A DNA stretch of 64,000 nucleotides from Pseudovirgaria hyperparasitica (GCA_010093815.1 ML996583.1); one strand, 5' to 3'. Shown: positions 3,770 through 31,692, numbered from the stretch's first letter. Notes: a model not told the origin generated them from the sequence alone. Numbers and translations are program-made.

Positions 3770-5374
3770 ATGCCAGGTCTTTCTTTCCTCCTATCCATGC
3801 GATCTGCTGCGCTGGGACTCGGCCTCTTGGCTCTGTCACCCGCGGCGACAATCGCTGCTCCACTATCAACTGTACCTCGTCAAGATGCTAGCTCTAGGCA
3901 GCGGGCCGACGATCTCTGCAGCTCCATGAATGCTGACCCTGCAGATGGTTTCCAGAGCATTACCACGCTACCTACGGAGTCTGGGTACTCCACTGGAATA
4001 GATATCAACTGGTAAGTGATCTATGGTACGCCCCCGCCTGGAAGCATATAAATGAACCTCTGTAGGTCTGCCACTTGCCATAAGCAGGCCAGCTGTATCG
4101 TGAGACCCGAAGAGACAAGTCAGCTGCAGCGACTTGTCCAGAGGTTGGTCGAGAACGATGTAAGATTCGCTGTCCGCAGCGGTGGCCACTCGCCTAATCT
4201 ACTCGCGGCGGCCATAGAAGACGGTATCCTCATCGATATGTCGGGCTTCGACGAGGTCACCATTGACAAGGATAACGGTGTCGTAGTCGTTGGCTCCGGA
4301 CAGAGATGGGGAGACAAGATCTTCCCGGCACTCACCGCCGAAGGCCTGATGGCCGTTGGAGGTCGTGTCCCAGCAGTCGGTGTTGGTGGCTTCTTGCAAG
4401 GTACTGGTCTATCATATCTATCCGGCCGTTACGGTCTTGCCTGCGATAATGTCAAAAACTTCGAAGTTATCCTTTCCGACGGTTCCCTCGTCAATGCCAA
4501 CACGGACGAGAACCCCGACCTTTTTAAAGCCATGAAGGGTACTGGCAACCAATTTGGTATTGTCACCCGGTTCACCATCTATACCTATCCTCTAGGCCAG
4601 ATCTGGGGTGGTCAGAAATTCTACGGCCCTGAACAACTCCCCGCGCTCTTGCAAGCTTCCCTCGAATTTCAACAAAACGCTGCTTTGCATGACGTTGACG
4701 CCAGCATAATGCTTCTATACTTCCCGACTGGTCCAGACGCTGGCGGTGTGCTGAGTATGGTCTACCTCAAACCTGAGGCTAATCCTCCGGCCTTCGCTCC
4801 CTTCGAGAACATTCCCACGACGGACGATAACACAAAAATCCAGTCTCTTACCTCGATGATTGCCGGCGCGCCCGTGCCCCCGAACCCACGCTGGGACTGG
4901 TGGAACGTAAACTTCAGGCCTACAGCGGCGATCTATGATCATTTTCAACCGCTCCTCCAGGGTCAGCCTGTTGAAACCATTTCGTCTGTTAAGAACAGCA
5001 CAATCGCGGTTGGGCTCAACTCCATCGGACCGAACGTAATTCAGCGTGGCATAGACATGGGCGGAAATCTCCTTGGCAACACGGTCGAGGCGCAGACGTG
5101 GTTTGCGATCAATGCTGGGTGGGCGAATGCAGCTGACGATGAGACCGTACATACGGCGGGCGGAGAGCTTATCAGGCAGATGAGAGATGTAACGATCAAG
5201 GAAGGCGAGCATATCGAGTGGCTGTTTCCCAATGAGGCGAATCATGATCAACAGGTCACCGGCTCATTTGGCGTACAGAACGTGGAGGAGCTAAGGAGGG
5301 TGAGAGATAAGTACGATCCTCAGCGCGTCTACCAGAGGCTTTTGCCAGGGGGTTTCAAGATTCCAGGCTCGTGA
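3770..5374 (+). CDS. Secreted FAD-linked oxidoreductase (berberine-bridge/VAO-type), copy 1
   Basis: Signal-peptide-like N-terminus; intron 4012-4065 (GTAAGT…TGTAG) joins INW|SATC; RSGGHS covalent-FAD histidine motif, VGGRVPAVGVGG, C-terminal KYDPQRVYQRLLPGGFK. Confidence 0.9.
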
Positions 5375-6018
5375 TGGCAGAGATCCCTTCGCGGAGAGGG
5401 TCTCTAGAGTGCTATCAGCAACAACACAGCTTAACATAGTATACATATTGCTCGAAGACTAAGAATGGAATCAATGGATACCATTGACTGAGTCCGCTTG
5501 GGATCCTTTGGGCCCACCTGTCCTTGACCCGTCTCCCGAATGTAGCAGAAGGGCAGTGGATCGTGTATGGTGCTAGATGTTGCCGTTTCATTTGGGTAAA
5601 AGCGCAGTACGTGGGGTCCAGGCAGTCAGCCTTAAGCAGGGTCGTGTATCCACCGCCACCGAGGGAATTCCACGGGCTAATCATCAGCTTAGAGAGGTAG
5701 TGCCAGCGAAATTTCCCGATTAGAGACCGACCAGTTTGGGCATAAAAACGAGTCCTGGTATCGGGAACTGAGAATCTCGGGGACTCAAGATACTCACTAA
5801 GAATCCCACCATCCTCCCGAAGATCCAACGGAATTGCTCGAGTCAAGCTCGCAATCCGAGTGGTAACCCGCGGGTAGTCATCGCATGCAGGCCATAGAAG
5901 GACCAGCCATTTAATAAGTGGGCAGTAATCTCAGCTTCCGCTTTCCAGAAATGAAAGCCAACTTGAATTTTGGCTCAGTGAATGCACGACCGGTCTCATT
6001 ACCATCCTCGATTTCATA

Positions 6019-7129
6019 ATGCCGTTGCAAGCCGCAATTTTTGTCATGTCCCTCGAGTGCTCGCCTGCACACTCGTTCGCGCACAAGCTTGATATGGCCA
6101 AGAAGTACGTAATCAGCGGCATTGAGCTGTGGTGGGAGGATCTTTTGGCAGTGCGCAAGCTGCGAGGCATGTGTGACAAGCATTCCTTGCAGATAATCTC
6201 GATACAGTCGTTCTATCATTACGAGGGGCTTCGGGACCGTTCCATTCACGAGCAACGTACTGCTCGGCTCCAGGAGTGGTTCTAAGCAGCACACATCCTT
6301 GGCACCGACCTGATCCTGATTCCGTCCAACTTCCTGTCTGCAGAGGAGCTGACTGACGATGCGGCGGTTCGGCTAGCGGATTTGCGAAAGGTAGGTTCCA
6401 GTCCACCTCCACCGTCCACTGTTCAAGCATGTCGACGTCCATTGCACCGTGGCGTTCAGCCTTGCTCCATTTTGAACACTTTGTCATGCAGATGGCCGAC
6501 TTGGGACTTGACAAACGACCAATAATGAGGTTTTGCTATGAGAGCTTAGCGTGGGACACAAATGCGGATACATGGGAGAAGAGTTTGGAGGTGGTACAGC
6601 AAGTGGACCGCCCCAACTTTGGCATCTGCCTGGACGCCTTTAACATTGCGGCCCGGGTCTTTGCCGATTCCGCCGCGCCAAGCGGATGTGCCCGTGATGG
6701 CATGAAGGAACTCGTGTCTAGTCTCGAGCGTCTGCGGTGTAGTGTTGAGCCAGCGAAGGTGTTTCTAGTCCAGCTTGTCGACGCAGGACGTCTCAAGGAG
6801 CCGTTGGTAGAGGGACATGAGCTCTACCAAGCGGCACAGCCAAGCCGCATGTCTTGGTCACGCAACTGCCGCCTGTTCTATGGGGAACACGGTGGATATC
6901 TTCCAATCAGGGAAATCGCCTGGTGTTGCTTCATGATCTAAAATATGACTGCTGGGTTAGTTCGGAATCATTCAACCGGCGAATGTCGGACGACGATACG
7001 GGAGTTGCTGAAGAACTCGCCAGGCGTGTTCTATCCCAGGATATGGATAGAAGGCAGACCGGGGGATTGCCGTGCCATGGTGGTTTTAATCGTGATCTTA
7101 TCTCGCATTTGAATGCTGCCCCGTTGTAG
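6019..7129 (+). pseudogene. 3-dehydroshikimate dehydratase (QutC/QA-4-like, xylose-isomerase-like TIM barrel), inactivated
   Basis: Motifs HKLDMA…GIELWWEDL, HYEGL, AHILGTDLILIPSNF, RFCYESLAW, VDRPNFGICLDAFNIA, RMSWSRNCRLFYGE; in-frame TAA at 6283-6285; intron 6391-6491; frameshift near 6930 (continues HDLKYDCWVSSESFNRRMSD in another frame). Confidence 0.8.
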
Positions 7130-7493
7130 GTGCAAGGCTCGGGTAATCTATGGTGTATCATGCATACATAGCATTGGCCCCTTCGTTTAATATCAATATG
7201 CAGCGGAGAGAGTATTGTTGAAAGGTGGATTTGTTCCCAGAGAAAAAAGATTATGCATCCATCGCTGGAGACTCGTAGAATCGGCGGCGTAGTGAGCACT
7301 AGTTACTGCAGTAAGAACACAGTTTTCAACATGGGTTGATCATGATCGCGTTCAAAACGCCAACTTGAACAACCTTGGATCTAAGGCACGCAATTAAGGC
7401 TGACATGGACACCTTAGGTATTATTAGGGCGTGCCTGGTGTGAACCTTAGTGCTTTAACGTCTCGCTCGCGGCTCTTCCAGTAATCCATCGTG

Positions 7494-9641
7494 ATGTTCA
7501 CGACTTTCTCCATCAAAAACAAGACCGAGGACGTGGCTGTTCGAGCTGATCAGCCTCGGACCAAAAAGAAGCCCGTCCCACTCGCCTGCGAGTATTGCAG
7601 GAAGAATCGCGTCAAGTGCGACAACGCCAAACCCTGCCGACACTGCACCTCCAGAAAGCTGAACTGTGTTTACTTGGAGCATGCTGACGTCCGCGTCCTG
7701 GTCAAGTATGTCCTTTGCAATGTCTTGGAGCGCCAGACTGACGTCAGCAGACAGGTACAGTGCCTGGTCGGCAAGGTCCGCCATCTCGAAGACCGCCTGG
7801 AAGAGGAGCAGCAGAAGACGAAAGCCCTCGCGGTACAGCAAGCCTACAGTCAACACGATGCAACGTCCATTCACCTCCGTCCCGCTACCGTCAGTATCTG
7901 CTCGGATGATCTAGCCTCTCCCACCGACGAGCCCTCGCTCCGGCTCGACCTGTCCACCAATGCCTATGCCGCAAAGATTGACACCATCCTCTCGCAGCAA
8001 CAGGTGTGCGTCCCTCTCAGCGTCGCCTCCATAACCTCCGGAGCTTCTTTCAACATCAGCACGCACCAATTTCTTCCAAGCCCTCGTCTTCCTCTGTCGC
8101 GCAAGCTGCAGGACCATTACAATCGACTCTATTGGCGAAGGCTTCACCAAGCACTTCCAGTACTGCAAGCAGACTCGTACAAGGCACATTATGCCATGCT
8201 GTGGCATTCGGATGGCTCGCGCCACATATCTTCCCTTGTAGATATCGTGCACGCGCTTGCCGTCCAGTCAGAGTACAGTTCCAAAGTCCCAGATCTTTCC
8301 GATCAGCCAGGGCTTCTAGAGACCGATAGCGCTAAAGACAAGGCTCGGTCTCTAGCTAGCTCGCTTTTCCAATCGTGCTCAGACGTACTCAACAAGGAGC
8401 ATGATTCTCCGACCTGGACTACTCTTCAATGCTACATCCTTCAAGTGCATTACCTCCATAATGAATGGAGACACAAATCTGCTTACCAAGTCCTAGGCCT
8501 GGCAATCCGGGCCGCACATATCCTGGGCTTGCATCAGAGAGCGCCCCAGGGAACTCCAACTGATGACCTGAATACACAAGACCGAATGCGAGATCTCCTC
8601 TTCTGTCTCGATACGCAGCAGCTCATTGAATATGGTATGCCATGCGGCCTCCCAGATCGTACCCCAAAACGATATATACCACCACCAGATCCTGAGAATA
8701 GAGACTTCTGGTTCTATTACTCGAGCATGATGATCATTGCCAAAAGCATACACAATCATTTGAACACAGATTTACAACCTTTAGCGTCACGTCCTACCAC
8801 GGGTACGAATTCGGAGATCGGTTTCGATGCGTTGAAGCGAATGGAAGTAGCTTTGCCAAAGCTGTGTCTTGTGGTGGAAGCATGGGCAGAATCTCTCCCC
8901 CCCAAGTTTCAGCTGACTCAGGCAAATGGAGAGACATCCCTGACTATGAAGCCAGCCATGCGCATTGATCCTGATGTACCTGTATGGCATCTTCGACAAT
9001 ATGTCCTGCTGGATATCTCGTATCATTGGGTTTGTCTGACCCTGGTGCGATGGTTCTTGGACCCGAAGAGCAATGTTGAGCCATCCGAGGTTCAACCTTT
9101 CGACCAATTTGCAATCCGGGCAGCCCAGCACGCTACAGCTATCGTGAAAATCTTAGATGTTACCAACAACGAGACAGAAGCGCTGCAAGGCTGGCTCATC
9201 GCTCATCGGATCGTATGGGATGCTGCGCTTGCTCTGATCGGATTTCTTCATGGTAGACCCGGACATTCGCTTACCGCCGAAGTCATATCGGCGCTTACCA
9301 TGTCGGGCACAATCCTAGAAACACAGGGCACGAGGTTCGCCCACGCTGCCTTTCCTGTTATTCGTGAAGTTCTCCAAAACATGGAGCCACAGAGCAGCGG
9401 TAGCGAAAGTTTATCAGCGGGCAGCTCGACACTATCGTCCTCTCGTGACATGGCACAATCACCTCCATCCTTGAGTTATCCTGACATAGACCTGGGTGAC
9501 ATTATGAATGACGCACCTCACGAGATATTTGATTTTCCTTCGGTGGACTTTGACCTGATGCCGATACTCGGACCGGCGCCGCTAGTCTTGCAAGACCATA
9601 GGACGAGACTTGAATCCGAATTACTTGATTACATCACTTAG
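7494..9641 (+). CDS. Zn(II)2Cys6 transcription factor with fungal TF middle-homology region (likely cluster regulator)
   Basis: ACEYCRKNRVKCDNAKPCRHCTSRKLNC zinc cluster, coiled coil, LGLAIRAAHILGLH motif; uninterrupted ORF. Confidence 0.92.
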   Translation: MFTTFSIKNKTEDVAVRADQPRTKKKPVPLACEYCRKNRVKCDNAKPCRHCTSRKLNCVYLEHADVRVLVKYVLCNVLERQTDVSRQVQCLVGKVRHLEDRLEEEQQKTKALAVQQAYSQHDATSIHLRPATVSICSDDLASPTDEPSLRLDLSTNAYAAKIDTILSQQQVCVPLSVASITSGASFNISTHQFLPSPRLPLSRKLQDHYNRLYWRRLHQALPVLQADSYKAHYAMLWHSDGSRHISSLVDIVHALAVQSEYSSKVPDLSDQPGLLETDSAKDKARSLASSLFQSCSDVLNKEHDSPTWTTLQCYILQVHYLHNEWRHKSAYQVLGLAIRAAHILGLHQRAPQGTPTDDLNTQDRMRDLLFCLDTQQLIEYGMPCGLPDRTPKRYIPPPDPENRDFWFYYSSMMIIAKSIHNHLNTDLQPLASRPTTGTNSEIGFDALKRMEVALPKLCLVVEAWAESLPPKFQLTQANGETSLTMKPAMRIDPDVPVWHLRQYVLLDISYHWVCLTLVRWFLDPKSNVEPSEVQPFDQFAIRAAQHATAIVKILDVTNNETEALQGWLIAHRIVWDAALALIGFLHGRPGHSLTAEVISALTMSGTILETQGTRFAHAAFPVIREVLQNMEPQSSGSESLSAGSSTLSSSRDMAQSPPSLSYPDIDLGDIMNDAPHEIFDFPSVDFDLMPILGPAPLVLQDHRTRLESELLDYIT

Positions 9642-10084
9642 CTCTGTCAGTATTCGGGATATTAATTCTCCCAATTGTAAAGTCTTGAGCGTTAGTCTCG
9701 GCGTTGTGGGAAACGCTTTCGCCCAGGTCGCGATGAGGGAAGCGACGCACTCATTAGGTACCCGTGTCTGACGCATGTCTCTCAACGATGGATGATGCGC
9801 CGTGCATTTCCTAGGCAATGCACCCCTGAAGGCACTCGGGCTCTACATAGAGATCTGCCGCTAAGCTCACGCGAGACTGGCTACATATGGTCTTCCGATG
9901 ATGGCCCAATTAGGCTAGCCTGAATAGACCTTGCAGTTCAGGCGTATAGACCATGCCTTGCCTTTAAGGCGAGGTCAGCAATTATATAACTCTTTTACTT
10001 ACAAGACTATTCTGTATGCTGGTCAAGGTACATCTCCGGCTATTCCAGTCCTCTCGTGAATTCCTCGCATCCTGTCGCTTCACG

Positions 10085-11688
10085 ATGAATACCCATCCTC
10101 ATGTTATTATCATCGGAGCAGGTATTGGCGGCTTGACGACTGCGATAGGTAAGCTATTCAGTTTCTTCCTCAATGTAGCTCTCTCTAACAGGCCCCCAGC
10201 ACTGTGTCAAGTCGGATGTAAGGTCACCATTTTGGAGCAAGCTTCTAGGCTTTCCGAAATTGGAGCAGGTATACAACTTGTAGGCGCAACGTAACTAGCT
10301 TTTTATCCTAACTAATGTCATACGGGCCCCAAACGCTACACGCGTACTTCAAAACCTGGGCGTTCTTGCAGAGGTAACTATCTATGCAAATAAACCCGCC
10401 GGTCTTGTTGTGCGCCGCTACGATGATGATTCAGAGATTGGACCCCGCTCACATAGCGATGGCCTCGACAAAAAATTCGATTCTCCAATGCTAGTCATCG
10501 TGGGTGCGCGCCAGACCAATCGTTTGGAGCTCTGCTGATACTTTCGTAAGCATCGAGCCGACCTTCAAAGAGTACTGTTGAAGGCTGTCCATGCCCAAGG
10601 CGCCCGCCTTCACATGAGCGCTCGTGTCAAAACTGTCGACCCTGATTTCAACGCCAAAGTTGAGCTTGAGACAGGACAACAGTTCGAGGGTGATCTTGTC
10701 GTCGGGGCGGACGGGATAAACAGCCAAGTCAGGGCACAGATGGTAAGATATTGGGAGATCCCAGACGAACTCACAGCGACCGGCGATGCAGCATATAGAG
10801 TCACTATACCGCGGCACAAGCTGCTTGAATGTCCCGGCCTCATACAAGAAATTGATGGCAGAGTCAGCAGTCGGTGGATCGGCCCTCATGGCCATATCAT
10901 GGCATATCCACTCCGTGGCAACGAGCTTTATAATGTGGTCATGGTTCACCGAAATGAAGAGGCTGGACTGGATAAATCAAACATATGGACACGCCGAGGA
11001 CGTATGACGGCTTTATTGAGGTTCTATGGCAGCTGGAGTCCTCTGGTGAATATTCTGGCGAAACAAATCAACACCGAAGGACTCGTGCAGTGGCCATTAG
11101 AGACCCGTCCACATTTGCCAAGCTGGTCCGTCAATCGAATCTGTCTTCTTGGAGACTCAGTCCATGCCATGCTACCATATGTGTACGTGCATTTCTAAAC
11201 GTATTGTCTGCTGGACTCCTTCATAACAAGTTTCGAACAGCGCCCAAGGGGCTGCGCAGGCTATCGAAGATGCCGCTGTTTTAGGCACTTGCCTTTCACA
11301 GATCAGTGATATTCCGCAGGTCCTTTCGATATACGAGCGTGTCCGCAAAGCAAGGGCAGAGTTCATTCAAAACTCTGCTTCTACGATGCGGACAGTCCTA
11401 CATTACGAGGACGGAGTCGATCAGGAGAAACGCGATGCCATAATGCGAGCGCCGAGAATCGCCGGCTGGAAGCACCCGGATCTTTGGGCTGATGCAGAAT
11501 ACCAAAATACCGTTTGGGGTTATGATGTAATTGCGGAGACTCAACGAGAGTGCAGCAAATGTCTAGAACCCCCAAATAACGCAGAGAGGCAAGTGAAAAG
11601 ACGGTCAAGGCAAGTTGAGTACGTAGTAGTCTTCATTCTTGTGCTCTTATTAGAGTGTATGCTTAAATATATCTGGTGGGGCTCCTGA
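10085..11688 (+). CDS. FAD-dependent aromatic monooxygenase (salicylate/hydroxybenzoate hydroxylase family); one non-canonical splice acceptor
   Basis: IIGAGIGGL, EIGAGIQL|APNATRVL, I|HRADL, VVGADGINS, LLGDSVHAMLPYV|AQGAAQAIEDA; introns 10149-10199, 10280-10325 (ends CGG), 10500-10550, 11183-11240; C-terminal hydrophobic tail. Confidence 0.85.
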
Positions 11689-12056
11689 CATGTTTATGAT
11701 TACGGACTCCACAACGAAGAGCACAATGGATGAAGTCTCCATGAACCTATTTCAAAGCCCCTTCGATAACTCAGCGTTTCTAAGCACTGCGGGTGGCACA
11801 CTCTCCGACCTGAGTCCACCACTGCCTTCCCTTATTCAACTGTAAGTTTACTCTGATCTTTAGTCCCCCCACGTCGTCCCTCTTTGAAATTACGACCTTT
11901 TCCCCGCGTCCTCATCACCGCCACCTCAATCCGTCATAATAAAAATCATCTGACGTAATGTTCAGGATGTTTTCTGTACCATTGCTACCCAGGCCCAAGA
12001 GACTCTACGCCAATATTTTAAAGAACGATAAGCTCTCTTGTCCAGGGACCATGGTC

Positions 12057-13484
12057 TTACTCTGACGACTTTTTTAATTGTATCAGCGAATCAGCACTTC
12101 CGTCTGGCTTCACGACTCCAACCATCTCCAGAGACTCGTCTGCCCGTTGGAACAGACCCTCCCAATCCTCCAGGGTTCGCTCTTTGCCGCCGAATTGGAC
12201 CATCATTTGCATATCTAAGGCTCTCATCACTCGTTCCCGCTCTCTGTCAACAGCTCCTGGCATGCTCATGACCTGTTCAGCGACGATGATGCTCGCGCCT
12301 GGTTTCAAGCACTGCGTCAATTGACGTAGAATCGTGATGCAATCTTCGTCAGCCCAATCGTGAAGGATATGTCGAAGCAAGAAGATGTCAGCGCCTCGGC
12401 TAGTCGATTTTTGAGGTTCAAAGAACGAATGCGGTGTGAACGTTACGCGTCCTTTGAGATGCGCTGGGATTGTTGCATCAGCTACCTCTTGAAGATTGGT
12501 GCTATCCTGAATCATCAAGGTAAGGCTTGGAAATGCGTCAGCAAGCATCACGCTCACGAAACCATTCGCTCCTCCGATCTATCAAACCGGCATCAGCGAG
12601 TCCAACGTCGACCAACGAGCCACGAACTTACGTCAACGACAAGAGCCTCACCTAGCGACTCCCACGCAAATCCTCTTACGACATGGCTTACGTCGTGTGG
12701 ACCACCGTTCGTGATCAATTCCATGTACCGTCCATAGCCTTGAATAAGGCTCGGCCGCTTTCCAGCATACTCCCACCATGAATCTTCCGTGTGGTGCGCA
12801 ACCTGAAACGGAGATTTTATCGCATCCTCTTGTCCCTGCTTGAGCCATCTGATGAGACCTAGTGAAGATGGCAAGCAAACTTCCAGCTGGTATGTAAGTA
12901 GGGGCTCCAACCTCGGTATCTCCATGGAAGTCACTGTGTGTGAAATGTATCCATTGCGGGGCTCTCGGAAGACCTGATATGTCATTGCTTGTCGCAGGAT
13001 CCGAGCGAGTGTATCGGCTGGCAGTTTGACTTTGTCTGCCAAGGCTTCGATACTGATGTCACCATTTGCTGGAACTAATTCGGCGATTCGATAATGGTTG
13101 ATCGTCTGTAAGGATACCAGACTATGCTTGTCCTGCGTTTTGTTAGATGCTTTAATCGCAGGCTTTGATGCAGCTTACTACGAGCGCCATATTTTTCGAA
13201 GTCTCAGTAGGTCCCTCCAGCGCATTGATCAAAAGCCGACATGCCTGCACTAATCTTGTACGGGCGTTCAGGCTTTCTCTAAAGCCATTCTCCGTCTTGC
13301 TGGGTCCCTTGGACTCATTGACTGCCTTCTGTTGCTCATTCTGGAGACTAGCATCATGTCGTAGGAAGTAGAAGCAGCTTTTGATCGTGTCAACCAAGGT
13401 ATCTATGGTATCGACCTGTCGCGGCGGTGTAGTAGCTGGCGAAACAAGTCCAGTGCCAAGCGAGCCCATAATTTCTCTGTTCAT
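12057..13484 (-). CDS. SAM-dependent O-methyltransferase (class II, OmtA/COMT-like)
   Basis: Two introns (about 13133-13178 and 12579-12631) splice in frame; VVD|IGGANG SAM motif, LRHILHDWADEDC, DMQMMVQFGGKERT. Confidence 0.9.
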
Positions 13485-14099: not shown

Positions 14100-15212
14100 A
14101 TGTCTTCGACCAAGACTCTCCAACAGCGGAAAATCTCGAAAGCCACCACAGCTGCCACTTCCCCAGGCTCCGAAACAGAAACTAAACACGCTGGGAATTA
14201 TGGTGGCAACAGCGTCAAAGGCTGGGTAGGGTATCTCCCCCAATCATGGGTCCCATATATTCAGCTTGCCCGCCTCAGTCCCCCCGCTGGCCTCTTCCTG
14301 ATCTACTTCCCCCATGCTTTCGGCCTCCTTTTGGCCGCGATCAAGCAGCGTTCCGACCCATCCGACGTCCTTTTCGCAGCGGGCAAATTACTCGCCGGTT
14401 CCTTCTTCGTCTCAAACGCAATTCACATCTGGAATGACCTGATCGACGCACCGCTCGACGCCAAAGTCGAGCGGACACGCCATCGTCCAATTCCACGTGG
14501 CGCCGTCTCCCCCTCCGCCGCGCTCGTCTTCACGGCAACGCAGGCTGCCGGCGCTGCTTATTTCCTGCCCACCATGGAAGGTGATACATGGCAGAACTTT
14601 CTGTACTCGGTGCCTGGGATATTGGGCTGGACTTACTACCCCTATGCGAAGCGCCAGGTGCCCGCTCCTCAAGCCGTGCTCGGATTCTGCCTCGCATGGG
14701 GCAACGTTATGGGTGAGAAGACGATGGGCGTCGAAGCCTTCACGACTGGACTTCTAGGCTCGAATTCCGTGCCCGCGGTTCAGTATGGGTCCGCGGCGCT
14801 GTTTGCGGCAGTACTGCTCTGGAGCATGATCTACGACACCGTGTACGCACACCAGGATCTCGAGGACGATCTCAAGAACGGCATCTTCAGTCTGGCGGTA
14901 TTGTGCCGGGGAAAGACGAAAGTGCTGCTGTGGCTGCTGCTTGCGCTCATGGTTGGGTCGCTTGTTGGGACCGGGATATGGGAAGGACTGGGAGCGGTGT
15001 ATTATCTTGGAGCGGTAGGTGGTGCGGCGGCGAGCTTGGGAAGCATGATTATCTTTGTAGATCTAAAAGATAGTGAGAGCTGTTGGTGGTGGTTCGGGAA
15101 TGGGTTTTGGTATGCCGGAGGTGCAATTGCCACGGGATTGGCGGGTGAGTATGCGATGAAGGCAGGGCTATTGGATCTTGTCCTCGAAGGCCTACGAATG
15201 GAAGGGATCTAA
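14100..15212 (+). CDS. UbiA/COQ2-family aromatic prenyltransferase
   Basis: Asp-rich motifs WNDLIDAPLD…VERTRHRPIPRG and YDTVYAHQDLEDD, YPYAKR, multiple transmembrane segments; intronless; divergent from the O-methyltransferase. Confidence 0.93.
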   Translation: MSSTKTLQQRKISKATTAATSPGSETETKHAGNYGGNSVKGWVGYLPQSWVPYIQLARLSPPAGLFLIYFPHAFGLLLAAIKQRSDPSDVLFAAGKLLAGSFFVSNAIHIWNDLIDAPLDAKVERTRHRPIPRGAVSPSAALVFTATQAAGAAYFLPTMEGDTWQNFLYSVPGILGWTYYPYAKRQVPAPQAVLGFCLAWGNVMGEKTMGVEAFTTGLLGSNSVPAVQYGSAALFAAVLLWSMIYDTVYAHQDLEDDLKNGIFSLAVLCRGKTKVLLWLLLALMVGSLVGTGIWEGLGAVYYLGAVGGAAASLGSMIIFVDLKDSESCWWWFGNGFWYAGGAIATGLAGEYAMKAGLLDLVLEGLRMEGI

Positions 15213-16005
15213 CGACGCGAAGTGATGCGATATCGGACGTGGGTATTCTCGAGGAGAGAACGGGATCTTGGTGGGTCGTCGACAACTTACAAGGCCTGAT
15301 ATACCGAGAATGTAAGCAGGAACAACGTCCAATTGGAGTGAGTAGATGTACAGCATGTTTTGCGGACCCATACAATGGCATTTCACTATGTAGGACTCAG
15401 AAGGAGATTGTATGAGATGCTACAGGGCCGGAAAGGCAACAGAGGTCATTGGAGTGAGGGCGGGAGTGCGAAGTAGCTTCTTAGAACCTTGTATTGGATG
15501 GACAGTCTTGAATTTTGGGTAAAAATTCGACTTGACTCCATGTAGAAGATCCAAAGTAAATGGATAGCTGTGTTGTTCAGGCTGTCGATTTACATTCGAT
15601 CTTATGTCGACGCCGCAGGGCCATGTGATATATGACTTCTAGAAGTTCCAGATCTCTTGAGGATACACATAACAGTGCTGTCCGGAGTTGTCGGAATTTC
15701 ACTGCGTGGAAACTGAGATCTGGGGATCCGGGCAATCAACACGGTGATGCTGTGAAGATTTGCGAACGAGACCCTTCGTGGTCCAAGAGAGTCTACAGTA
15801 TTACGCCTTCTGTCCATTGCCCAAGAGGAGCCCACCGGTCGACTCGTACTAAGCATGGGTAGGTAAGTATATGAGCCATGGTTCTATAAAAAGACATAAC
15901 ACTCTGCAATATACGAAGAGCTGCCTGAGCCCTTAGTCACTGCATTTTTTACAGAGCGAGATAGAAACCTAAGAACAACCCGAAAGTACTTAACCTGGCA
16001 TCAAC

Positions 16006-17695
16006 ATGATTTGGACCTCACTGTTTCTGGGCATAATATCTGGTATGGTTCTAGCGGCAGGTTCTATCTCGAAACTATCACCATCCGCAAAATCAGCTTG
16101 TTCAGAGCTCGCACACACGCTTGATGGGGGAGATGGGAGTATCGTAAACACACCTCCACTAAGTACAACATCCGTCGAAATCAACTGGTAAGCAACCGCG
16201 CCCTCGTTGTCTCCATTCGGGCTTGACCAACAGCTCAGGTCCCAATCATGCATCTTCAACTCCAGCTGCATTGTGCGTGCCCACAATGCGGAACACGTCT
16301 CAACTGCCCTGGCGATCATCGTCCAACATGAAGCCAAATTTGCTGTCCGCAGCGGTGGGCATTCGCCGAATCCGGGCTTCGCCGGTATTGCGGATCCGGG
16401 TGTGCTCATTAGCCTTGAGAATTTCCTGCAGGTAACCCTGAATGAGGATAAGAGCGTTGCTAGTATCGGACCAGGCACGCGCTGGGGGCAAGTATATGAT
16501 ACGCTCGATCCGGCTGGTCTCGCTGTCGTAGGGGGTCGCCTCCCTTATGTAGGCACAGCTGGTCTTGTTCTCGGAGGCGGTTTTTCGCATTTCTCTGGAG
16601 AGTTTGGCATGGCGGTTGATAATGTCAGGAATTTTGAGGTGTGTAGCAAGATCAGCTGTCTGCTCGAATTGACTGACCGGCTTCGCTGAAGGTCGTTCTT
16701 GCGAATAGTTCGATTGTAGATGCCAATGCGGATGAGAACGTCGAACTTTTCTGGGCTTTAAAAGGCGGTGGTCCCAACTTCGGCATTGTGACGAGATTCG
16801 ATCTCAACACGATTACAGTAAGAGATATCTGGTACAGCATAAGAGCCTATGCCGTGGAGTCCGCGGATCATGTGTTGGATACCCACGCAGCATGGCAAAT
16901 GGATGGTGGAAGGGATCCCAAGGCAACTGTAGCGCTCGTTATCAGTCTAGATGTCATCACTCTGGTGCTGGTGTACTCGGAGCCAGTTCAGAACCCGCCT
17001 GCATTCGCCGCATGGGACAACCTGAGTACGGCTGCCGTCCCAGTACCACCGACGCTCGGTACTGTCGCTTCTTTGACAAACACTCTCGGCGGCTCCTTCG
17101 AGTTGCTGCCCCAAAGGTAACAGGTGCGAATCATGTCGGAGTTCCTCAGACTAACACAAGCAGACATGATTACCGCGGAGTCAGCTCCAAAGTCGATGCT
17201 CAGCTTTACAAAGACGTCTATGCGCATTGGCTACCGGCCGCGTTAGCTACAAGGGAGAGGACCGGTGCGAATCAGACCTTCTCATTGCAACCTGTTCCCG
17301 CGAACATCGCGGCAGTCGGTGTCACGAATGGAGGGAATGCACTCGGTATTCCAGCCGTTGATCATCAGTGTAAGTGTCGTGAGTAGATCTCAGTTCTGGA
17401 AGCATAGCTCAAATTCCTAGGGTGGACTACATTGATCGACTGGAACAATGCCGTCGATGACGACGATGTTTGCTCAGCATCTTTCTCGACTACCGAGATG
17501 TGGACGAGCTTGAGCAGGGAGCGCGGACTAGATGTGAATTACATCTTCATGAACGACGCCTCTCGAGACCAGAACCCTCTCAGTACACAAGGTGCGGAGA
17601 ATCTTGGCAAGTTAAGGTCTATCGCAGGAGCGTATGATCCTAGTGGTATCTTCCAACGATTGCAGAAGGATGGATTTCTACTTTCGAAGGCTTGA
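16006..17695 (+). CDS. Secreted FAD-linked oxidoreductase (berberine-bridge/VAO-type), copy 2
   Basis: Signal peptide; introns 16188-16238, 16639-16691, 17117-17163, 17370-17420 splice in frame; [52 protein letters not shown]. Confidence 0.9.
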
Positions 17696-17856
17696 TTCTA
17701 TATATACAGTCGGATCTCGATATAACGATACGAAGACGGCCACGTCGATTACATCGGTATAGCGAGATTATCGTATAATTGATTCTTATATAAGCTGACC
17801 TTTAGGCGCTAATTGGCTACCTTCATTTTTAGACGATGTGAGCCCCTATTTCTAAT

Positions 17857-18096
17857 TATCAAGGGTCTCCTCTCAACTCTACTAATACCTATTTTATATC
17901 TATTTATAACTTAACATAACGATAAATATAGGTAAAATAAGACAATTTATGAGATATTAGAATTCACGAAGAAGACACCTGCTATTTTAATAAAGTGGAT
18001 AGAACCTATTATGAGTCCAAGATTAATAAGTAGGTAAGAAGAGAAGTAAATATAGAAGTAGATAAAAATAGATAGATTATCATAAGGTCCTTGATA
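17857..18096. mobile_element. AT-rich relic, possibly a RIP-mutated solo LTR or MITE
   Basis: Abrupt AT-rich island bounded by inverted TATCAAGG…CCTTGATA (would be TGTCAAGG…CCTTGACA before RIP); no TSD visible. Confidence 0.3.
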
Positions 18097-19544
18097 GGCT
18101 GCGCGACCAGAGTGGCATTCCCCTCTAGGAGATGATGTTCATCGAGTACGCGATCTCCCCGGTGACAATGACTATCCTCCTCATCGATTGGGCCTGAAGA
18201 CGGTCAAAGTGAAGGACCCGGATGGCATCCATGCTTGTCTCAGTAAGTAGGCTCAGGTCGAGAAGATGGATGCTTAAATATAGAGACCGAGACGGACGGT
18301 GAGTCTTGGGAATATTTATTGTATTTCCTGTCCCGCATTACGATCTAGTGATCGATGTAGAGCGCCAGCCTGATGTGCAATGGCTCTAAATCTACTGCAA
18401 GGGGTGGTCTTTTTGAGGACCGGCATACAACTGCGTCGGCTACCAACGCACGCGAAGTAATCGAAACTTCATCAGAGCTACCTGGAACCCTTATTAAATC
18501 TGCTTATTTTCGGAATTGAGGTTGTCAACAGATATAAATACGTGTTCCACTAGTGACTACTGTACTTGGTTAGCCACCCCTAGTGAATCGCGTAGCGTCT
18601 TCGTCTCTCTATACTAGTTAGTTTAGTGAATAGTCTCTTGAGACACAGCACGCTTTGTTGAAGTGTGAAGACTGCTCGATGCCTTAGAGAGACTGCGAAG
18701 TTACCAAGAATGCCGCCCTGATGACGTCCCTTCCCGAGGCAAGGGTGTGATGAAGAAGAAGCTTATTCGAGGCCATACGACTTCTATCATACATAGCCGA
18801 CCCTGTGCCTGCGCGGTCATTGTATCGATGGTGTCGTCTCAATCAGTAGCTCGTAGAGATTGCGTATATATCGAAGCTGTCAGCTTTCAAGCGCAAGATG
18901 AAAGAGCAAGGTAGGCTTGGGCAGTGTTGTGGAGGAGAGGAGCGTTAGGTAATTAGGCGTTTCGGCTTATGAATCGATAAGGCAAATCTCGTGATATTTC
19001 TCATCATAACGTAGACATGTAGAATCATCTATACAATCACGCTGCGTACACTAGAGATCCTCGAACACATTCTCGAGATATTTCTGAACAGTCGTACCAA
19101 GCCGCCCAGGTACGGAAGAAGAACATCCGAAAACCGCTGGCAATGCGATTACATCTAGGGATGCATCAGGCATCAATGTCGACACCATAACGCCCGAACA
19201 GCAGTACGACCCTCCACCTGTACCTAGCCTTGATACTTCTTGAAGTAGAAAATCGACCAGAACAACCAGGCCCAAACCCAGACAACTACCCAGACGCTGA
19301 GCGAGCAGACACGGAAATACGCAACAATGATACATCAAGCATCGGATCACGATGAGAATGAGGTTGTTTCAGCTGAGAAATTGATTACCTAATAATCTAT
19401 TTTGTCGTTCTCTACAGCAGTCGATTAGCTGAGCCGTTCTGGCGTGGATGAGGTCCAACACCGAACTATCGCGATGCTAGCCTTTCTCGACATAGTTTGT
19501 GATCTTAGCCCTGCTTACGTAAAAGTATTCTGAAGGCCTACCTT

Positions 19545-19699
19545 CCCTCGATTGGAGCTCAGATTCAATTCAGTTAGATTTGATTCTGCTCTCCCATTTG
19601 GGCGATTCAATTCGATTCGACGATATCTCAAATCGAATAACTTCAGTCTGTTTCGACTCGAGGTCCAGCATCGGATCGAATCGATTGGTGCCAACTCTG
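19545..19699. mobile_element. Relic end of a DNA transposon (hAT-like), related to 2975-3130
   Basis: GATTC/GAATC-rich tract ending GATTGGTGCCAACTCTG (reverse complement begins CAGAGTTGGCA). Confidence 0.4.
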
Positions 19700-20001
19700 T
19701 GTCGGCGAGTGAAGCAACTGTCACTACTCTATCAGTTAGTGGGGGTGAGTGTTTCATTTGCTCTGATTCACATGTCAGGTTACGTACAGCGTAAGCACTA
19801 CGCTGGCATCTGATCGGCGGCCCAGCTTTCTCGGTGGTCTCCTTTAGTCAAGCAGCTCCGAAGCAGGAAAGCCGAAAAAAATGAAATATGCGACCCAAAA
19901 ATCTCTCATAAACTACTGACGTAGGTGTTCCTGTGTCGGATGATGTTGTACCTGTGCTGCGAGTCTTCTGCCGAATTCCAAGATGTTTCTATCAAAGGAA
20001 G

Positions 20002-20787
20002 ATGTCTCGAAATTTCCGAACCCACTATTCGTGGCGTGAGTCTCACGTGGCTCTTTTTGATCCCAGGGTGTGTTTACAACATAATCACAGCTTCGAGGGA
20101 GCAATCATTGTGCGGCTCCTGCCTCATGCCACGAGAGCGTTCGTCTACGATATCACTTTCCATCTCAAACACCCGCGACTTCTGGCACTGAACTCAAAGA
20201 AGCCCCCACTACACTTCCATCCTTATCAGAAGGAGTACATGCAAGTCTTGGAAGGCGAACTCTTTGTGGAAGTCGATGGTGTAGAGATGGCATTGGCTCC
20301 GGAGCACGGTGAGATCACCGTGCGCCCATGGCAACATCATCGCCTTTATCCACATCCAAGCGGCGGTAGGGACACCATGAGATTTCTGCTATCGGCAGAC
20401 GATACTCCGGAATCGTTCAAGATTGACAACGTCTTTTTCCAAAACTGGTACGCGTACCAAGACGAGGTTGTACTACACAAAGGGGGACATTTCGACGTGT
20501 TGCAAGTCATGAATGTAAGTTGATTTTACTTGGTGTTAGTCAACCCAATAGTTATCGGCTGAAAACGAGAGATGTTCGACGCTGGGGGTTCTTATCTCTC
20601 CTTACCGACCTGGATGCCTTTCCGATGTCAAATATCAAGAGCTGCTGGAATATTACTGGGAAGATGGATTGGCGGTCTTGCAGGTTATCAGCCATTTCGC
20701 GAAGAATGGACAACAGAATGGGAGCTTGCATGCAAAAAAATGAGCGAAACATGGACTCTGCGAAGATTCGCCCACGGCATACAATAG
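20002..20787 (+). CDS. Cupin-domain protein (YanE/AtD/PatJ-like candidate quinone epoxidase)
   Basis: PPLHFHPYQKEYMQVLEG and VRPWQHHRLY cupin metal motifs, FFQNWYAYQD; intron 20515-20571 joins QVMN|MFDAGGSYLSLP. Start codon uncertain. Confidence 0.8.
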
Positions 20788-20943
20788 ATGTAATAAACTG
20801 CTGTATCACTTGCATTGTATGCCTGATCAAGCAGTCCGAATAGCTACAAGCTAGATACAGAAATGGGAAGCCGCATGCTCAATCGAAAGTCTCCTCGGCG
20901 GTATAGAAAGCTGATGATGTAACACAGCAAACGTTCAAGATCG

Positions 20944-21933
20944 CTAATTGAGAGGAAGAGCAGACTCCCTGACGCGGCACCATTCCACGGTCTTTTTCCA
21001 TAGATCGTCTTGAACATTCTCTTTCTGGCTGTCCGGCGAGCTTTCATCCTTCTTATACATTGTGAAGAATCCCATTTCCCCTGGAGAAGCCTTGTTGGTG
21101 GCGAACTCGGCGATATCGACCGCGGCTTCCTTGGTAGTCCGCATGGTAGGGTCGAGGAAGCGTAGAAGAGGACGACCGGGCCCAAGGATCCATTTCGACA
21201 TGAATTGAACCATGGCAGGGGTGTTTTTACGGAGTGCGGCGGAATCAGTCATGTTACCGGGATTAACAGCGATGGCAGTAATATTGCTCATGTTATTCCT
21301 CTGCAGGCGACGGTTTAGAGCATGAACCCACATGGTCACAACCAGTTTCGACTGCGCGTACTTGAGGAAGCCTTGCGCCATATTATCATGGGGCTCTTTG
21401 TCTTCAGGGAATACGAGCTCATCAAGGTTCGAAGGGATAAAGACGGGAATTTTTTCAAGTCCGTTTTTACCTGGCCAATGCGCATCGCTTGAGAACAGAA
21501 CAACACGACCTCCCGAACGCTCGAAGCTTCCAAGCAATCTTAAAACCAGAGCTGCGTGACTAAGGTGGTTGATCTGGAAGGTTTGCTCGTAGCCGTCGCT
21601 AGTGGTGATGGTGTCTTTGTTGAGATTCCAGAAATAAGCATTGCCGATGATGCTCGAGAGCGCTGGAAGCTTGCCGGTTTTGATCTCCGCGATTAGCTCA
21701 TTGGCAAGCGTGTTGACAGATGTGAGCTTTGAAAGGTCCAGACCGCGAACCGTAGCCTTCCCCTTAGGAAATCTTGCAATTGTTTGTCGTAACTTTTCGG
21801 TGTTTATGTCGTCGCCACCGGGGTTTCGCACCGTCAAAAGTAGTGTATGTTCCGGGTAGTTCGTGAGTAAAAATTCGACGGTAGGGATAGCAAGCGAACC
21901 ATTGGCGCCGGTGATAAGGATGGTGCCGCTCAT
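20944..21933 (-). CDS. Short-chain dehydrogenase/reductase
   Basis: MSGTILITGANGSLA Rossmann motif, FQINHLSH, catalytic YAQSK, AVNPG; convergent with the cupin gene. Confidence 0.9.
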   Translation of the reverse strand: MSGTILITGANGSLAIPTVEFLLTNYPEHTLLLTVRNPGGDDINTEKLRQTIARFPKGKATVRGLDLSKLTSVNTLANELIAEIKTGKLPALSSIIGNAYFWNLNKDTITTSDGYEQTFQINHLSHAALVLRLLGSFERSGGRVVLFSSDAHWPGKNGLEKIPVFIPSNLDELVFPEDKEPHDNMAQGFLKYAQSKLVVTMWVHALNRRLQRNNMSNITAIAVNPGNMTDSAALRKNTPAMVQFMSKWILGPGRPLLRFLDPTMRTTKEAAVDIAEFATNKASPGEMGFFTMYKKDESSPDSQKENVQDDLWKKTVEWCRVRESALPLN

Positions 21934-23027
21934 TCTGGCGATGTAAAAAGTCACAACGATGGTTTATGATATTGTTACTTTCAAGGAAGAAAGGTGGCCA
22001 AGTAAGAGCTCATGTCCGCAGCAAGCTGGGTGAAGGATTCAACTGAGGTGGGAGTTTGGGTTGCCAAGAGTCTGAGCCACTGACGTTTATGGCAATTCAG
22101 AAATGCGTTCCAGCTTGGCACTGGGTAGAGTTGGGAGGAAGTGGTGAAGCCCACGCCCGTGTGGGAAACCCGGCGACAGAATGTGAGACCAAGTGTTGCG
22201 GCGCGTTGGTGGTCCAGTGTCTGATTTAGGGAATCTCTCGGAAGGGTCCGAATGACCCGAAAGCGGCTAGCGCACGACTTTTGACGCTCGGGCTACCATA
22301 ACAAACCAAAGGCTTTATTGTACATTGGGGGCAGCTGGAGTAGCTTGATAAGCTACAGTCCCAGCCACCAGCGAGGGCCAGTCTGGGATCAATCAATCAG
22401 GCAATCTATCTTCTTCTGGCCATACAGATAGTACATTTCATCAGGTTCTTCGCGGAAGACAAGTCGGTCGGCCTGCAATGTAATTGGTAGTAGTGGATGC
22501 ATTGAGAAGAATCTGCGAAGCGTTCCTTGTTTGGAATGTACGATTATTTGCTGCACTTTTTACCTCATAATATGGTGAGGGTTGTGGTATTTCCCTCCAT
22601 GACACCATTATACGTTCCCTAGGCGAAGGTTCAAACTCTTCTCCAGAATGCCTTGGGAATCGAGGTAGGAACTCGCTACCGAGAATTTTGTTCTTGGAGT
22701 CTGTGTAATTTGATGCGCTTGTAGGGCAATAACGTCGATTATGCCCCTGATAGGACATTCGGCTGCTTTCCGATGAGATGATAAGGCTCCTTCTGCTTAG
22801 CTGACCTGCATAACTCTCGATGTGGATTATAAGCTTAGCTGACTTGCATAGCACGCGATATAGGTCATAATACCAGGGGCCATGGTAAGGTTGCACACCA
22901 GGTACATGGATATGTTGTTCGGTCAGTCCAGCAAAAACCATAAGCAGGTATTTCTTCTGAAATCCTCCGGATTCATATGCATATACTGTCTGTGCCGGCA
23001 TCTAGCTGCTCGATAATTGGAGTAACT

Positions 23028-24840
23028 ATGCCGGTCCCCAACTACCTCGCTCTCGGAGCAGTTCTTTTGCTGGTAACACTTTATTTGTTGTGTCTACCGC
23101 GACCGATACCCGGGATACCCTTTCGAAAGAATGCCAGCAGATCGATACTAGGAGATATGCCTGCCATGGCGAAACATTCTAGAGAGACCGGGCAGGTCTG
23201 GGATTGGATCGTATCTCAGACAGTGTCATTGAATTTGCCCATTGTTCAGGTGTTTGCGAGACCGCTGGCCAAGCCTTGGGTCATTCTATCAGACTTCCGA
23301 GAAAGTCAAGACATTCTGATGCGAAGAACGAGGGAGTTTGATCGCAGCACGCACGCTGGAGAGATATTCCAGGGACTTCTACCAGATCACCACAATTCCA
23401 TGCTCTCAACTGCTCCGCAATTCAAAACCCATCGGAAGTTGATCCAAGACCTCATGACAACGGCCTTTCTAAACGAGGTACCCCAATAGAATATCCACCG
23501 TTATGGGCGCTAAATGATAATCAGGTCGCTGCGCCTCGCATTTATGGAGCCTTCGCCGCTTTATGCGATCTTTGGGTCCATAAAGTGCGATTGAGTGAGG
23601 GACATCCGTTCTCGGCATATCACGATGTTGAGAGAGCAACTCTCGACGCGATTTGGATGGCGGTTTTCCCATTGGCCCAGCAGGATGGACTGAATGCTCG
23701 TCAGCAACAACTTCTCTCCACGATACCGGACATGAATACATCCATGTGTGCTTCAAAAGATGATCCTGTGGAATTCCCGGAATCGCCAATGCCGCATGCA
23801 CAGCAGTCGATTCTTACCCTTACCCAAAGTCTCGAGATAAGTATGAAGTCGCCATTTCCGAGATTGGCTCATTGGTTTCTTCGCCGAAGGTCGTACATGC
23901 GCGAAGCACGAACGTACAAGGAGAATATGATAGTTCGCGAACTAGAGAAAGCAAAGTTGCGGTTCACTGGTGGGCTAGATGGCGGCCAGGAGACAAGATG
24001 CGCCATGGACTTTGTTCTCCGCCGAGAGTTGATGTCAGCTGCTAAGGAGGATCGAGCTCCGAAGCATGACACCCGGATGCTGTTTGACGAGGTATTATAC
24101 AGGTCTTTAGCCCATTTCCACGAGCCTGAACTAAAATTAATCGCAGTTGTTTGGTTTACTAGTGGCTGGACACGATACGACCTCGTCTACTACCTCGTGG
24201 GCTTTGAAGCTCTTGACAGATAACCCCTCAGTTCAGAGGAATCTAAGGAGCGCGATGAGAGCTGGGTTTCCAGAGGCCAACGCCGGGCAGAGATGGCCAA
24301 CAGTGCTAGAGATTGTCAAAGCGCGCATCCCATATCTTGATGCTTCGCAGGAGGAAATATTTCGGCGGTCGATCGTTCAACCTTTCGTGGCGCGCCAGGC
24401 TGCGGTGAATACCGTCGTACTGGGACATCGCGTGCCCAAAGGTACTAACATCTTCATAATGGCGAATGGCCCCGACATTGTGTCACCATCGGTTGGATAT
24501 CCCGGAAGAAAAAAGACATGAAAGCAGTAGAATAGCGAAGGGACGCACGGGCTCCTGGAATTCTTCTGATATCCATCTGTTCCAACCTGAAAGATGGCTG
24601 AGACAAGAAGCCAACGAGGTAGTATTCGACCAGAATGCAGGACCCATGCTAAGTTTTGGGCTCGGTCCAAGAGCGTGCTTTGCGAGGAGAATGGCATACC
24701 TAGAGATGAAGATAGCGCTGGTACTCCTTGTCTGGAACTTCGAGTTTCAAACCGTCCCAACGACTCTGAGTTCATATGAAGCGGTAGACAAGCTGACTCA
24801 TCAGCCGGTTCAGTGCTACATAAGACTTCGGAAACTTTAG
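23028..24840 (+). pseudogene. Cytochrome P450, frameshifted upstream of the haem-binding motif
   Basis: Membrane anchor + LPRPIPGIP; introns 23478-23524 and 24092-24146; AGHDTT (I helix), EIFR (ExxR), PERW, FGLGPRACF; one extra G at 24491-24492 shifts the frame. Confidence 0.85.
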
Positions 24841-31224: not shown

Positions 31225-31692
31225 TTTCAGTTCTAAAAGATTGAGTTATAGTCTTGCTGAACAATCTAGGTAAAGGTTATGCTGCATGACAATAGAGTTC
31301 ACTGCAGATTGTAGAGTAGAGCGGGACTTGAATGAGTTCTGGCGCGGGTGAGATCATTGAGGTCCAAGCGTCTCAGGACTCCAATAACCAATACTGAAAG
31401 GCATCGGGAATGCGGGGTAGTCACATCCATGTTGCAAAACTGACCTCCAGTGTGTCCTTGTGCAGACTCCAACACGATGGTAATGCGTTTGCCGATTACT
31501 TTGTCAGGGTAGGAGTTTGAATTGCTACTGCAGAATACGATTGCTAGCGGATCGAAGCAGCTTGACGACTGAGCTTCATCAGTCTTGTTGTGTCATGTGT
31601 ATATGTTTGTGATCTTCGTTTGTTTGAAAAGCAGTATGATTGTACTGATGCCTGCTGGCAGGTGTAGTAAATAAGAAGACCTAATCGTACCG

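Follow-up and report, generated by a model that had tools for sequence, protein, structure and literature searches.

A partly decayed UbiA prenyltransferase cluster without its own polyketide synthase in Pseudovirgaria hyperparasitica

We find that a 64,000-nucleotide stretch of the Pseudovirgaria hyperparasitica genome (GCA_010093815.1 ML996583.1; hereafter the window, G000:C19:273367-337366, on the 839 kb contig C19 of a 35 Mb fungal assembly) holds a fungal biosynthetic cluster in mid-decay, the core of which, including a UbiA prenyltransferase, is intact. The cluster comprises ten genes (Table 1), eight of which have open frames (two Sol5-like FAD oxidases, a transcription factor (TF), an FAD monooxygenase (FMO), an O-methyltransferase (OMT), the UbiA, a cupin and a short-chain dehydrogenase (SDR)), while two, a QutC-like dehydratase and a cytochrome P450, are pseudogenes in this genome. 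Counterparts of the UbiA, SDR, cupin and oxidases are linked in other fungi, and we consider there to be an even chance that what we see here is the partly decayed form of a module, widespread in ascomycetes, that makes a prenylated hydroquinone or epoxyquinoid and lacks a polyketide starter of its own.

Gene models were drawn from splice signals, families were called with Pfam, and four sequencing runs (X1-X4, representing two samples and two studies) were compared with the window. X1 and X2 share a sample, from which the assembly itself may have come; X3 and X4 are of unrecorded kind, and we read them as transcript assemblies since their joints fall at predicted introns. A preliminary description of this DNA had proposed ten contiguous, working genes, and the ten do lie at the place and in the order proposed, with Pfam backing every family, but the dehydratase and P450 are broken, and the row is interrupted by a 2.3-kb gap containing a dispersed repeat, which parts oxidase 2 from the cupin.

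Table 1 Features of the UbiA cluster, in window coordinates (aa, amino acids)
Feature	Position	Strand	Product	Pfam	Remarks
Sol5/BBE-like FAD oxidase 1	3770..5374	+	516 aa	PF01565 (E 6e-26)	intact; one intron, 4012-4065; hydrophobic N-terminus
QutC-like 3-dehydroshikimate dehydratase pseudogene	6019..7129	+		PF01261	stop, frameshift and 17-aa deletion
Zn2Cys6 TF	7494..9641	+	700 aa	PF00172, PF04082	intact; intron 7706-7750
FAD monooxygenase, decarboxylating 4-hydroxybenzoate/vanillate 1-hydroxylase (Mnx1/VibMO1) type	10085..11688	+	465 aa	PF01494	intact
O-methyltransferase (Methyltransf_2)	12057..13469	-	437 aa	PF00891 (E 1e-23)	intact; two introns; best Protein Data Bank (PDB) match GedA
UbiA prenyltransferase	14100..15212	+	370 aa	PF01040	intact; single exon; Asp-rich motifs intact
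Sol5/BBE-like FAD oxidase 2	16006..17695	+	495 aa	PF01565	intact; four introns
Dispersed repeat, probable transposon relic	17702..17950	.			7 other genome copies, 68-81% identity; inside the 2.3-kb gap
Cupin	19983..20787	+	230 aa	PF07883	intact; two introns, both spliced in runs; metal site H59/H61/E66/H101
Short-chain dehydrogenase	20944..21933	-	329 aa	PF00106	intact; single exon; Y192 and K196 invariant
Cytochrome P450 pseudogene	23028..24840	+		PF00067, matches in two frames	frame change relative to paralogue L124

Linkage in other fungi supports the earlier proposal that the UbiA, cupin and SDR form a real conserved unit. Homologues at E<=1e-30 number 341 for the UbiA and 432 for the SDR; the linkage counts refer to the best 120 of each, every row being a cluster representative, with a shared contig inferred from equal longest-contig size and adjacency from locus tags or accessions. 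Among the matches listed, an SDR row lies on the same contig for 12 of the 119 non-self UbiA rows. In ten of these pairs the two genes lie at a distance of 1-4 locus tags or accessions, as judged from locus tags in six (cf. Caloplaca, Xylographa, Trapelia, Xanthocarpia, Cytospora leucostoma and Aspergillus hancockii) and from accessions in four (Viridothelium, Lentithecium, Melanomma and Biscogniauxia marginata), the two remaining pairs, from JGI, being joined by equal contig size alone. Homologous loci include Viridothelium KAF2238876-80, Lentithecium KAF2688557-60 and Trapelia MMC30_004801-04, and five of the seven best non-self SDR matches belong to UbiA-linked pairs. Three of the 22 non-self cupin homologues share a contig with an SDR row and one with a UbiA row, cupin-SDR linkage is also seen in Anthostomella (adjacent tags) and Cytospora mali, and one database gene model (P0298) fuses a UbiA of the window type to a cupin of the window-type family. 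A locus-tag search yielded only VP1G_05619, a P450 lying four genes from a cupin homologue, and nothing about a PKS (PMC6965324).

The oxidases are tied to the same unit by a metagenomic locus and by Pestalotiopsis fici. When metagenomes were scanned with the UbiA alignment, two of the 80 loci listed belonged to the window clade, L011 and L012 (1.1 kb long). L011:7466-15442 contains an oxidase 2-like gene, a UbiA (56% identical), a gene with a fungal-rhodopsin domain and an oxidase 1-like gene, the best match of window oxidase 2 lying on the 5' side of the UbiA and that of oxidase 1 on its 3' side; by its gene content, L011 appears to be a reduced variant of the module. In P. fici, PFICI_11871, a homologue of the SDR, lies next to the Sol5-like PFICI_11870. 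Scans of genome-contig and viral-contig collections with the SDR alignment found no relative.

Phylogenetic analysis of the UbiA (every fourth of 120 listed homologues, by a quick tree search) places the window family in one clade, with support of 97, separate from a COQ2-like paralogue on contig C5 (L002, 41% identical to the window UbiA); two rows of this tree (L021 and L023) are non-UbiA proteins that spoil its root, and clade support is read regardless of both. In an alignment to 4OD4, Ser105 of the window UbiA lies opposite Arg43 of ApUbiA, a residue that the ApUbiA structure places close to the 4-hydroxybenzoate carboxyl (PMC11047366). Ser occupies this position in 118 of the 120 listed homologues, the motif being unreadable in the other two, and Arg is kept in the COQ2-like paralogue and in the other true UbiA rows with a readable motif. 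As the preliminary description held, the enzyme is thus not the housekeeping COQ2, a role filled by L002. The lack of the carboxylate-linked Arg throughout the clade makes the proposed order of prenylation before decarboxylation doubtful, however, and hints that the acceptor of the window UbiA may not be a benzoate. The clade would allow a clear-cut examination of the idea that benzoate and hydroquinone acceptors are told apart by the residue at the Arg43 position. Decay of the core was assessed at columns 90% conserved, as the share of homologues that deviate as much as the window protein or more; this share is 32 of 41 for the UbiA, 19 of 33 for the SDR and 13 of 17 for the cupin (seven of 25 rows, distant or partial, being left out), and no relaxed selection on the three is seen at such columns.

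The cupin model agrees with the database protein P0121 in length and ends, and its predicted structure has a pLDDT of 93. The window cupin is 43% identical to three compared proteins with ParE residue numbering, 38-39% identical to two further relatives, which we take to be PatJ/AtD-like, and 26-28% identical to P0405 and P0434, which are AtyE-like by their primer-derived N-terminus. In a quick tree it falls within a separate clade of 54 rows (support 98) that excludes the ParE-like group. For the Paraphaeosphaeria epoxidase ParE, the published metal-site residues are His62/His64/Glu69/His104 (PMC12720273), and H62/H64/E69/H104 are found in six of the seven listed proteins of a Didymosphaeriaceae-rich cluster that includes Paraphaeosphaeria. 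The window cupin has this His-His-Glu-His spacing, yet AtyE-like cupins share it, so that it is no proof of orthology. Sequence, profile and fold searches of the PDB returned no close relative of the cupin, SDR or P450 exon, and an Atlas structure look-up gave generic names only. We regard the cupin subfamily, as defined by its sequences, as a candidate new type of epoxidase. An Aspergillus niger homologue of the SDR is ASPNIDRAFT_180730, to which no yanD name is attached.

We also considered whether the cupin, SDR and P450 are leftovers of a salicylaldehyde cluster of the fog/vir/srd/px type, which is built on a polyketide synthase of the highly reducing kind (HR-PKS), since the order of these three genes, together with FAD oxidases, resembles such clusters (PMC11161606, PMC13463297). 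PxB, PxC and PxD, the homologues of FogB, FogC and FogD, have 273, 209 and 291 aa (PMC11161606), lengths that disagree with the 329-337 aa of the aligned SDR family members and the ~221-257 aa of the full-length cupin family members. Moreover, both the HR-PKS and a second SDR are absent from the locus, and we reject this very improbable origin on protein lengths and the absent PKS.

Both broken genes are damaged at the level of the reading frame. The dehydratase has an in-frame TAA at 6283-6285, changes frame near 6920 and lacks 17 residues relative to an intact paralogue (L096, on contig C3 beside a phosphofructokinase and a helicase), to which it aligns in three frames at 43, 57 and 65% identity; the QuiC model matches it at E 1e-7, far under the model cut-off. 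The P450, aligned in two frames to a continuous paralogue (L124), has a frameshift near 24490 and a stop at 24519-24521, upstream of the haem-binding motif with its Cys. Neither X1 nor X2 has an alternative letter or indel at the three lesion sites. Record 17 of X3 spans the whole dehydratase gene with no other letter and no gap, and record 20 of X3 has P450 intron 2 spliced and intron 1 kept, with no indel or extra joint at the frameshift among the entries listed. A search for rescuing introns gave, for the three lesions, 24, 5 and 17 GT/GC..AG candidates that would restore the frame, but in no case was a consensus donor combined with a branch site; this filter is strict, and would also fail several real introns of the locus, so that the sequencing runs weigh more as evidence for the lesions.

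These lesions bear directly on how the pathway might be fed. A local supply from dehydroshikimate, as first proposed, is not backed, given that the window dehydratase, the sole tie to shikimate in that proposal, is a pseudogene and the intact paralogue is on C3, and the P450, frameshifted before its haem Cys, cannot contribute to the pathway either. The dead dehydratase nonetheless suggests that an ancestor made protocatechuate locally, a step that today is possible only via the C3 paralogue, and the ancestral locus probably had both its own protocatechuate supply and one more P450 oxidation. The idea of ten genes working as one pathway, with a dehydratase of its own to supply it from dehydroshikimate and with protocatechuate prenylated first, would draw support from the presence of all ten families, from the class of the FMO and from the existence of shikimate-terpene conjugates (tricycloalternarenes and guignardones) in Dothideomycetes (PMC13720968). 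However, two lesions in the dehydratase and one in the P450, present in assembly and runs alike, and a UbiA without an Arg43 equivalent speak against it, and we consider this reading refuted for this genome, leaving it the slimmest of chances, unless assembly and runs happen to share an error at each of the three lesions.

The reported lack of a backbone synthase is confirmed within the searches made. None of the 37 ketosynthase (KS) matches of the genome lies on C19, a number that is a lower bound from the best 40 candidates scored. By their Pfam layouts, reducing PKSs account for 13 of the 22 KS places, adenylation-first hybrids for 3, non-reducing PKSs for 2 and a hybrid of a PKS and a non-ribosomal peptide synthetase (NRPS) for 1; of the remaining three, one is a fatty acid synthase, one is a thiolase and one lacks a long PKS frame. 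None of the 22 has the domain layout that we take to be that of a 6-methylsalicylic acid (6-MSA) synthase. (The hybrids L097, L098 and L100 end in KS-AT-KR-ACP-reductase, an upstream adenylation domain being seen in L097 and L098.) A tblastn search with 105 open reading frames (ORFs) from 18 of the genome's own PKS loci found no PKS remnant in the gaps, Pfam found neither a PKS remnant nor any meaningful match in 77 window gap ORFs, and NRPS and terpene-cyclase domains were absent among the ORFs scanned, no contig-wide search for these having been made.

A possible, albeit unlikely, explanation for this absence is that the locus is an orphan, holding the tailoring functions of a pathway of the yanuthone/macrophorin/paraphaeone type, primed by a PKS that was lost here together with the two decayed genes or lies apart in relatives. 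The nearest characterised cupins (ParE, AtD and PatJ) all belong to 6-MSA PKS clusters, ParG prenylates a hydroquinone (PMC12720273), a transposon-like relic sits in the internal 2.3-kb gap, and two other genes are decaying, all of which would agree with such a loss. Yet C19 has no KS match, the gaps no PKS remnant and the genome no 6-MSA synthase layout, no ParB-type decarboxylase occurs among the ten genes, and the cupin clade stands apart from the ParE-like group. L011 shows no PKS match within 10 kb, and no PKS identifier is near the P. fici pair, the nearest readable in a published tree being PFICI_11984, 113 genes away (PMC4320822, identifiers from figure text).

The FMO belongs, at the family level, to the decarboxylating hydroxybenzoate 1-hydroxylase type, in agreement with its earlier assignment: its best PDB matches are 8x38, 8r2t and 8gsm (E 2e-28 to 3e-23), and its nearest solved relatives include a decarboxylative vanillate 1-hydroxylase (8x38) and a 4-hydroxybenzoate decarboxylase (8gsm). 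X3 and X4 splice all four of its introns in frame. Intron 2 (10280-10325), which has a branch site and the non-canonical ends GT..GG, is removed in frame in a single contig of X3 and a single one of X4, on which grounds we reject the notion that the gene is broken at a non-AG acceptor; spliced contigs hide the acceptor in the strain that gave the RNA, which may have a normal AG there, and the displayed pieces contain no other letters. GT-GG introns are rated rare in human and mouse (PMC1557818), and an in-frame intron of this kind would lead automatic annotation to call the FMO broken. As a separate observation, the minus strand ~1 kb left of the window (L005:8884-9049) carries a fragment of 166 bases that matches the 3' part of the FMO at 84% identity and holds an in-frame stop. 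For the TF, a 5' leader intron (7311-7417) is spliced in X4 and the coding intron in both X3 and X4. Contig depth, which cannot rank genes, is low or patchy over the UbiA and oxidase 2, and higher over the TF-FMO and cupin-SDR stretches.

Whether these genes belong together with the UbiA module may be questioned. Two unrelated neighbours could instead have come to lie side by side, one being an aromatic catabolism or detoxification island (dehydratase, TF, FMO and OMT) and the other the UbiA/oxidase/cupin/SDR module, such that the link to shikimate is accidental; we judge this rather unlikely. L011 would fit such an arrangement, since it holds a UbiA and both oxidases with no match to the FMO, OMT, dehydratase or TF. 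The closest structure to the FMO is a vanillate 1-hydroxylase, the Mnx1-type FMO class also serves catabolism, and the broken FMO fragment left of the window indicates local shuffling. A dehydroshikimate dehydratase gene also occurs in the polyketide-primed psd cluster, together with many unrelated genes (PMC12573980). On the other side, the four genes in question sit between oxidase 1 and the UbiA, a pair linked in L011, the aty, bis, pan and mos clusters regularly pair their UbiA with a decarboxylating FMO (PMC12720273, PMC11109268), and such an FMO suits a UbiA that lacks the carboxylate-linked Arg. We infer that the FMO, OMT and TF serve the same pathway as the UbiA module.

If the locus is indeed a decayed copy of a PKS-free module, its chemistry might run as follows, with the steps, their order, the substrate and the chain length all being proposals. 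The host would supply a benzoate in trans, whether 4-hydroxybenzoate, protocatechuate or vanillate from the OMT, as the local dehydratase is dead. The FMO would remove the carboxyl and hydroxylate the ring to give a (methoxy)hydroquinone, the OMT acting either before the FMO (yielding vanillate) or after it, and the UbiA would then prenylate the uncharged ring. The cupin may oxidise or epoxidise the product, as ParE does, the SDR may reduce a carbonyl and so set a carbinol, and the two Sol5-like oxidases may finally oxidise or cyclise the product.

A more far-reaching hypothesis, which we regard as doubtful, is that the UbiA (of the Ser-for-Arg clade), the cupin of its own subfamily, the SDR and the two Sol5-like oxidases constitute a third ascomycete route to epoxyquinoids or oxidised meroterpenoids related to them, fed neither by 6-MSA nor by phenylalanine ammonia-lyase (PAL), and common in lichen fungi, Xylariales, Dothideomycetes and Aspergillus. 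Intact relatives would then draw on dehydroshikimate via protocatechuate and hydroxyquinol. If true, this route could supply the missing genetic basis of shikimate-terpene conjugates of the tricycloalternarene/guignardone type.

Several observations weigh against our preferred reading of the locus as a decayed PKS-free module, in addition to the 6-MSA context of the nearest characterised cupins. Among the UbiA matches listed, 107 of 119 rows have no SDR link. L011 has no cupin or SDR match within 10 kb, which suggests that the module is labile, and its lack of FMO, OMT, TF and dehydratase matches extends to the P450, with no match within 10 kb. The absence of a PKS in relatives is drawn from two loci, and that of P. 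fici is known from figure identifiers, with no UbiA seen there. In the comparisons of cupins, ParE and AtyE were stood for by proxies (residue numbering and primer ends) in place of their own sequences, and the role of the Arg43 site is disputed in the same paper that describes it (PMC11047366). Finally, no spliced joint is listed for the introns of the OMT or oxidase 2.

The boundaries of the cluster are as previously claimed, with degraded DNA on the left, and gene-poor DNA followed by a NOD-like receptor (NLR) gene on the right. The left flank contains fragments of a kinase, APH and DUF6540 and a broken FMO fragment, and the right flank has 2.5 kb without Pfam matches before an NLR with HET, NB-ARC and TPR domains. 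This NLR (27332-31245, minus strand) consists of a HET frame (30415-31245) and an NB-ARC and TPR frame (27332-30424), and lies head to head with a second HET-domain gene (31675-34107, plus strand). Further along are an Agd3-type galactosaminogalactan deacetylase with a CBM87 domain (37213-39018) and, at ~57700-57760, a 10-base assembly gap within a simple tetranucleotide repeat. Inside the cluster, runs X1-X3 have loose ends at 17702 and 17741, within the dispersed repeat; a 132-base piece at 18096-18227 is 88% identical to C9:1228814-1228946, and two tandem 38-base copies, 79% alike, occupy 22795-22870 between the starts of the SDR and P450. Two spliced joints lie outside coding sequence, one on the plus strand (11842-11965, past the FMO stop, in a contig that continues unspliced across the OMT) and one on the minus strand (19724-19787, upstream of the cupin start). 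They hint at long transcripts that overlap their neighbours in antisense, although contigs cannot prove single transcripts.

As a damaged copy, the window locus is itself a poor target and a moderate lead for genome mining. What makes it valuable is that it points to a conserved UbiA-cupin-SDR-oxidase set in at least 10 named fungi, several of them lichen-formers, which PKS-centred predictors are likely to overlook. A 2025 review names the enzymes that install epoxides as a gap (PMC12720273). We found no description of this gene set, or of a tricycloalternarene cluster, in a literature search that left most subscription journals outside and covered the top 20-30 listings of the larger result sets, and which is consequently weak evidence of novelty.

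With reference to characterised systems, the novelty first claimed for the locus was overstated. PKS-free UbiA clusters are already a known kind, as aty, bis and pan (PMC12720273) and mos (PMC11109268) attest, and what is new here is the gene content and the UbiA and cupin clades, in a damaged copy. Nevertheless, none of the characterised clusters compared matches the locus one-to-one, as had been suggested. The fog/vir/srd/px clusters differ from it in combining an HR-PKS, two SDRs and a VirC-type cupin, whereas the window has one SDR and no PKS. COQ2 shares the UbiA fold and intact Asp-rich motifs with the window enzyme, but belongs to another clade and keeps Arg before the first Asp-rich motif. 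The mos cluster (moserinol, Neoarthrinium moseri) is likewise PKS-free, with a UbiA and a BisD-like FMO, uses host 4-hydroxybenzoate, and was missed by antiSMASH (PMC11109268). In contrast to the window, it needs a Pyr4 cyclase, and its six genes include no cupin, SDR or OMT (PMC11109268); the lack of meaningful Pfam matches among the window gap ORFs is blind to domainless enzymes, and no Pyr4 profile search was made.

The aty (asperpentyn) and bis (biscognienyne B) clusters resemble the window more closely in gene families, being PKS-free and combining a UbiA, a decarboxylating FMO of the AtyG/BisD/VibMO1 class, a cupin, an SDR and a P450 (PMC12720273, PMC12356543). They differ from it in several respects, however: no PAL is present among the ten window genes or the gap ORFs, a functional alkyne-forming P450 (AtyI/BisI) is characteristic of them whereas the only P450 of the locus is truncated before the haem Cys, and the start of the window SDR is unlike those of AtyC and AtyD (PMC12356543). 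AtyE is 50-65% identical to BisC, IacF and VirH (PMC12356543), well above the identity of the window cupin to AtyE-like proteins, and AtyB and BisJ prenylate 4-hydroxybenzoate first (PMC12720273, PMC12356543), unlike the order proposed here. That order, in which an FMO decarboxylates 4-hydroxybenzoate and a UbiA then prenylates the resulting hydroquinone, is the one described for pan (panepoxydone, Panus rudis), which departs from the window in being from a basidiomycete, in using a P450 rather than a cupin for epoxidation and in having a PAL (PMC12720273). The par, yan and mac clusters (paraphaeones, yanuthones and macrophorins) share with the window a UbiA, a His-His-Glu-His cupin and an SDR, and in them the UbiA acts on a hydroquinone, followed by the cupin as epoxidase and then by the SDR (PMC12720273). 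Compared with them, the locus lacks a 6-MSA synthase, a ParB-type decarboxylase and a ring-hydroxylating P450, its only P450 being frameshifted, and its cupin falls in a separate clade; in their place are a decarboxylating FMO, an OMT and two Sol5-like oxidases. The route proposed for the window would resemble pan in its first two steps, and the par pathway from the hydroquinone onward.

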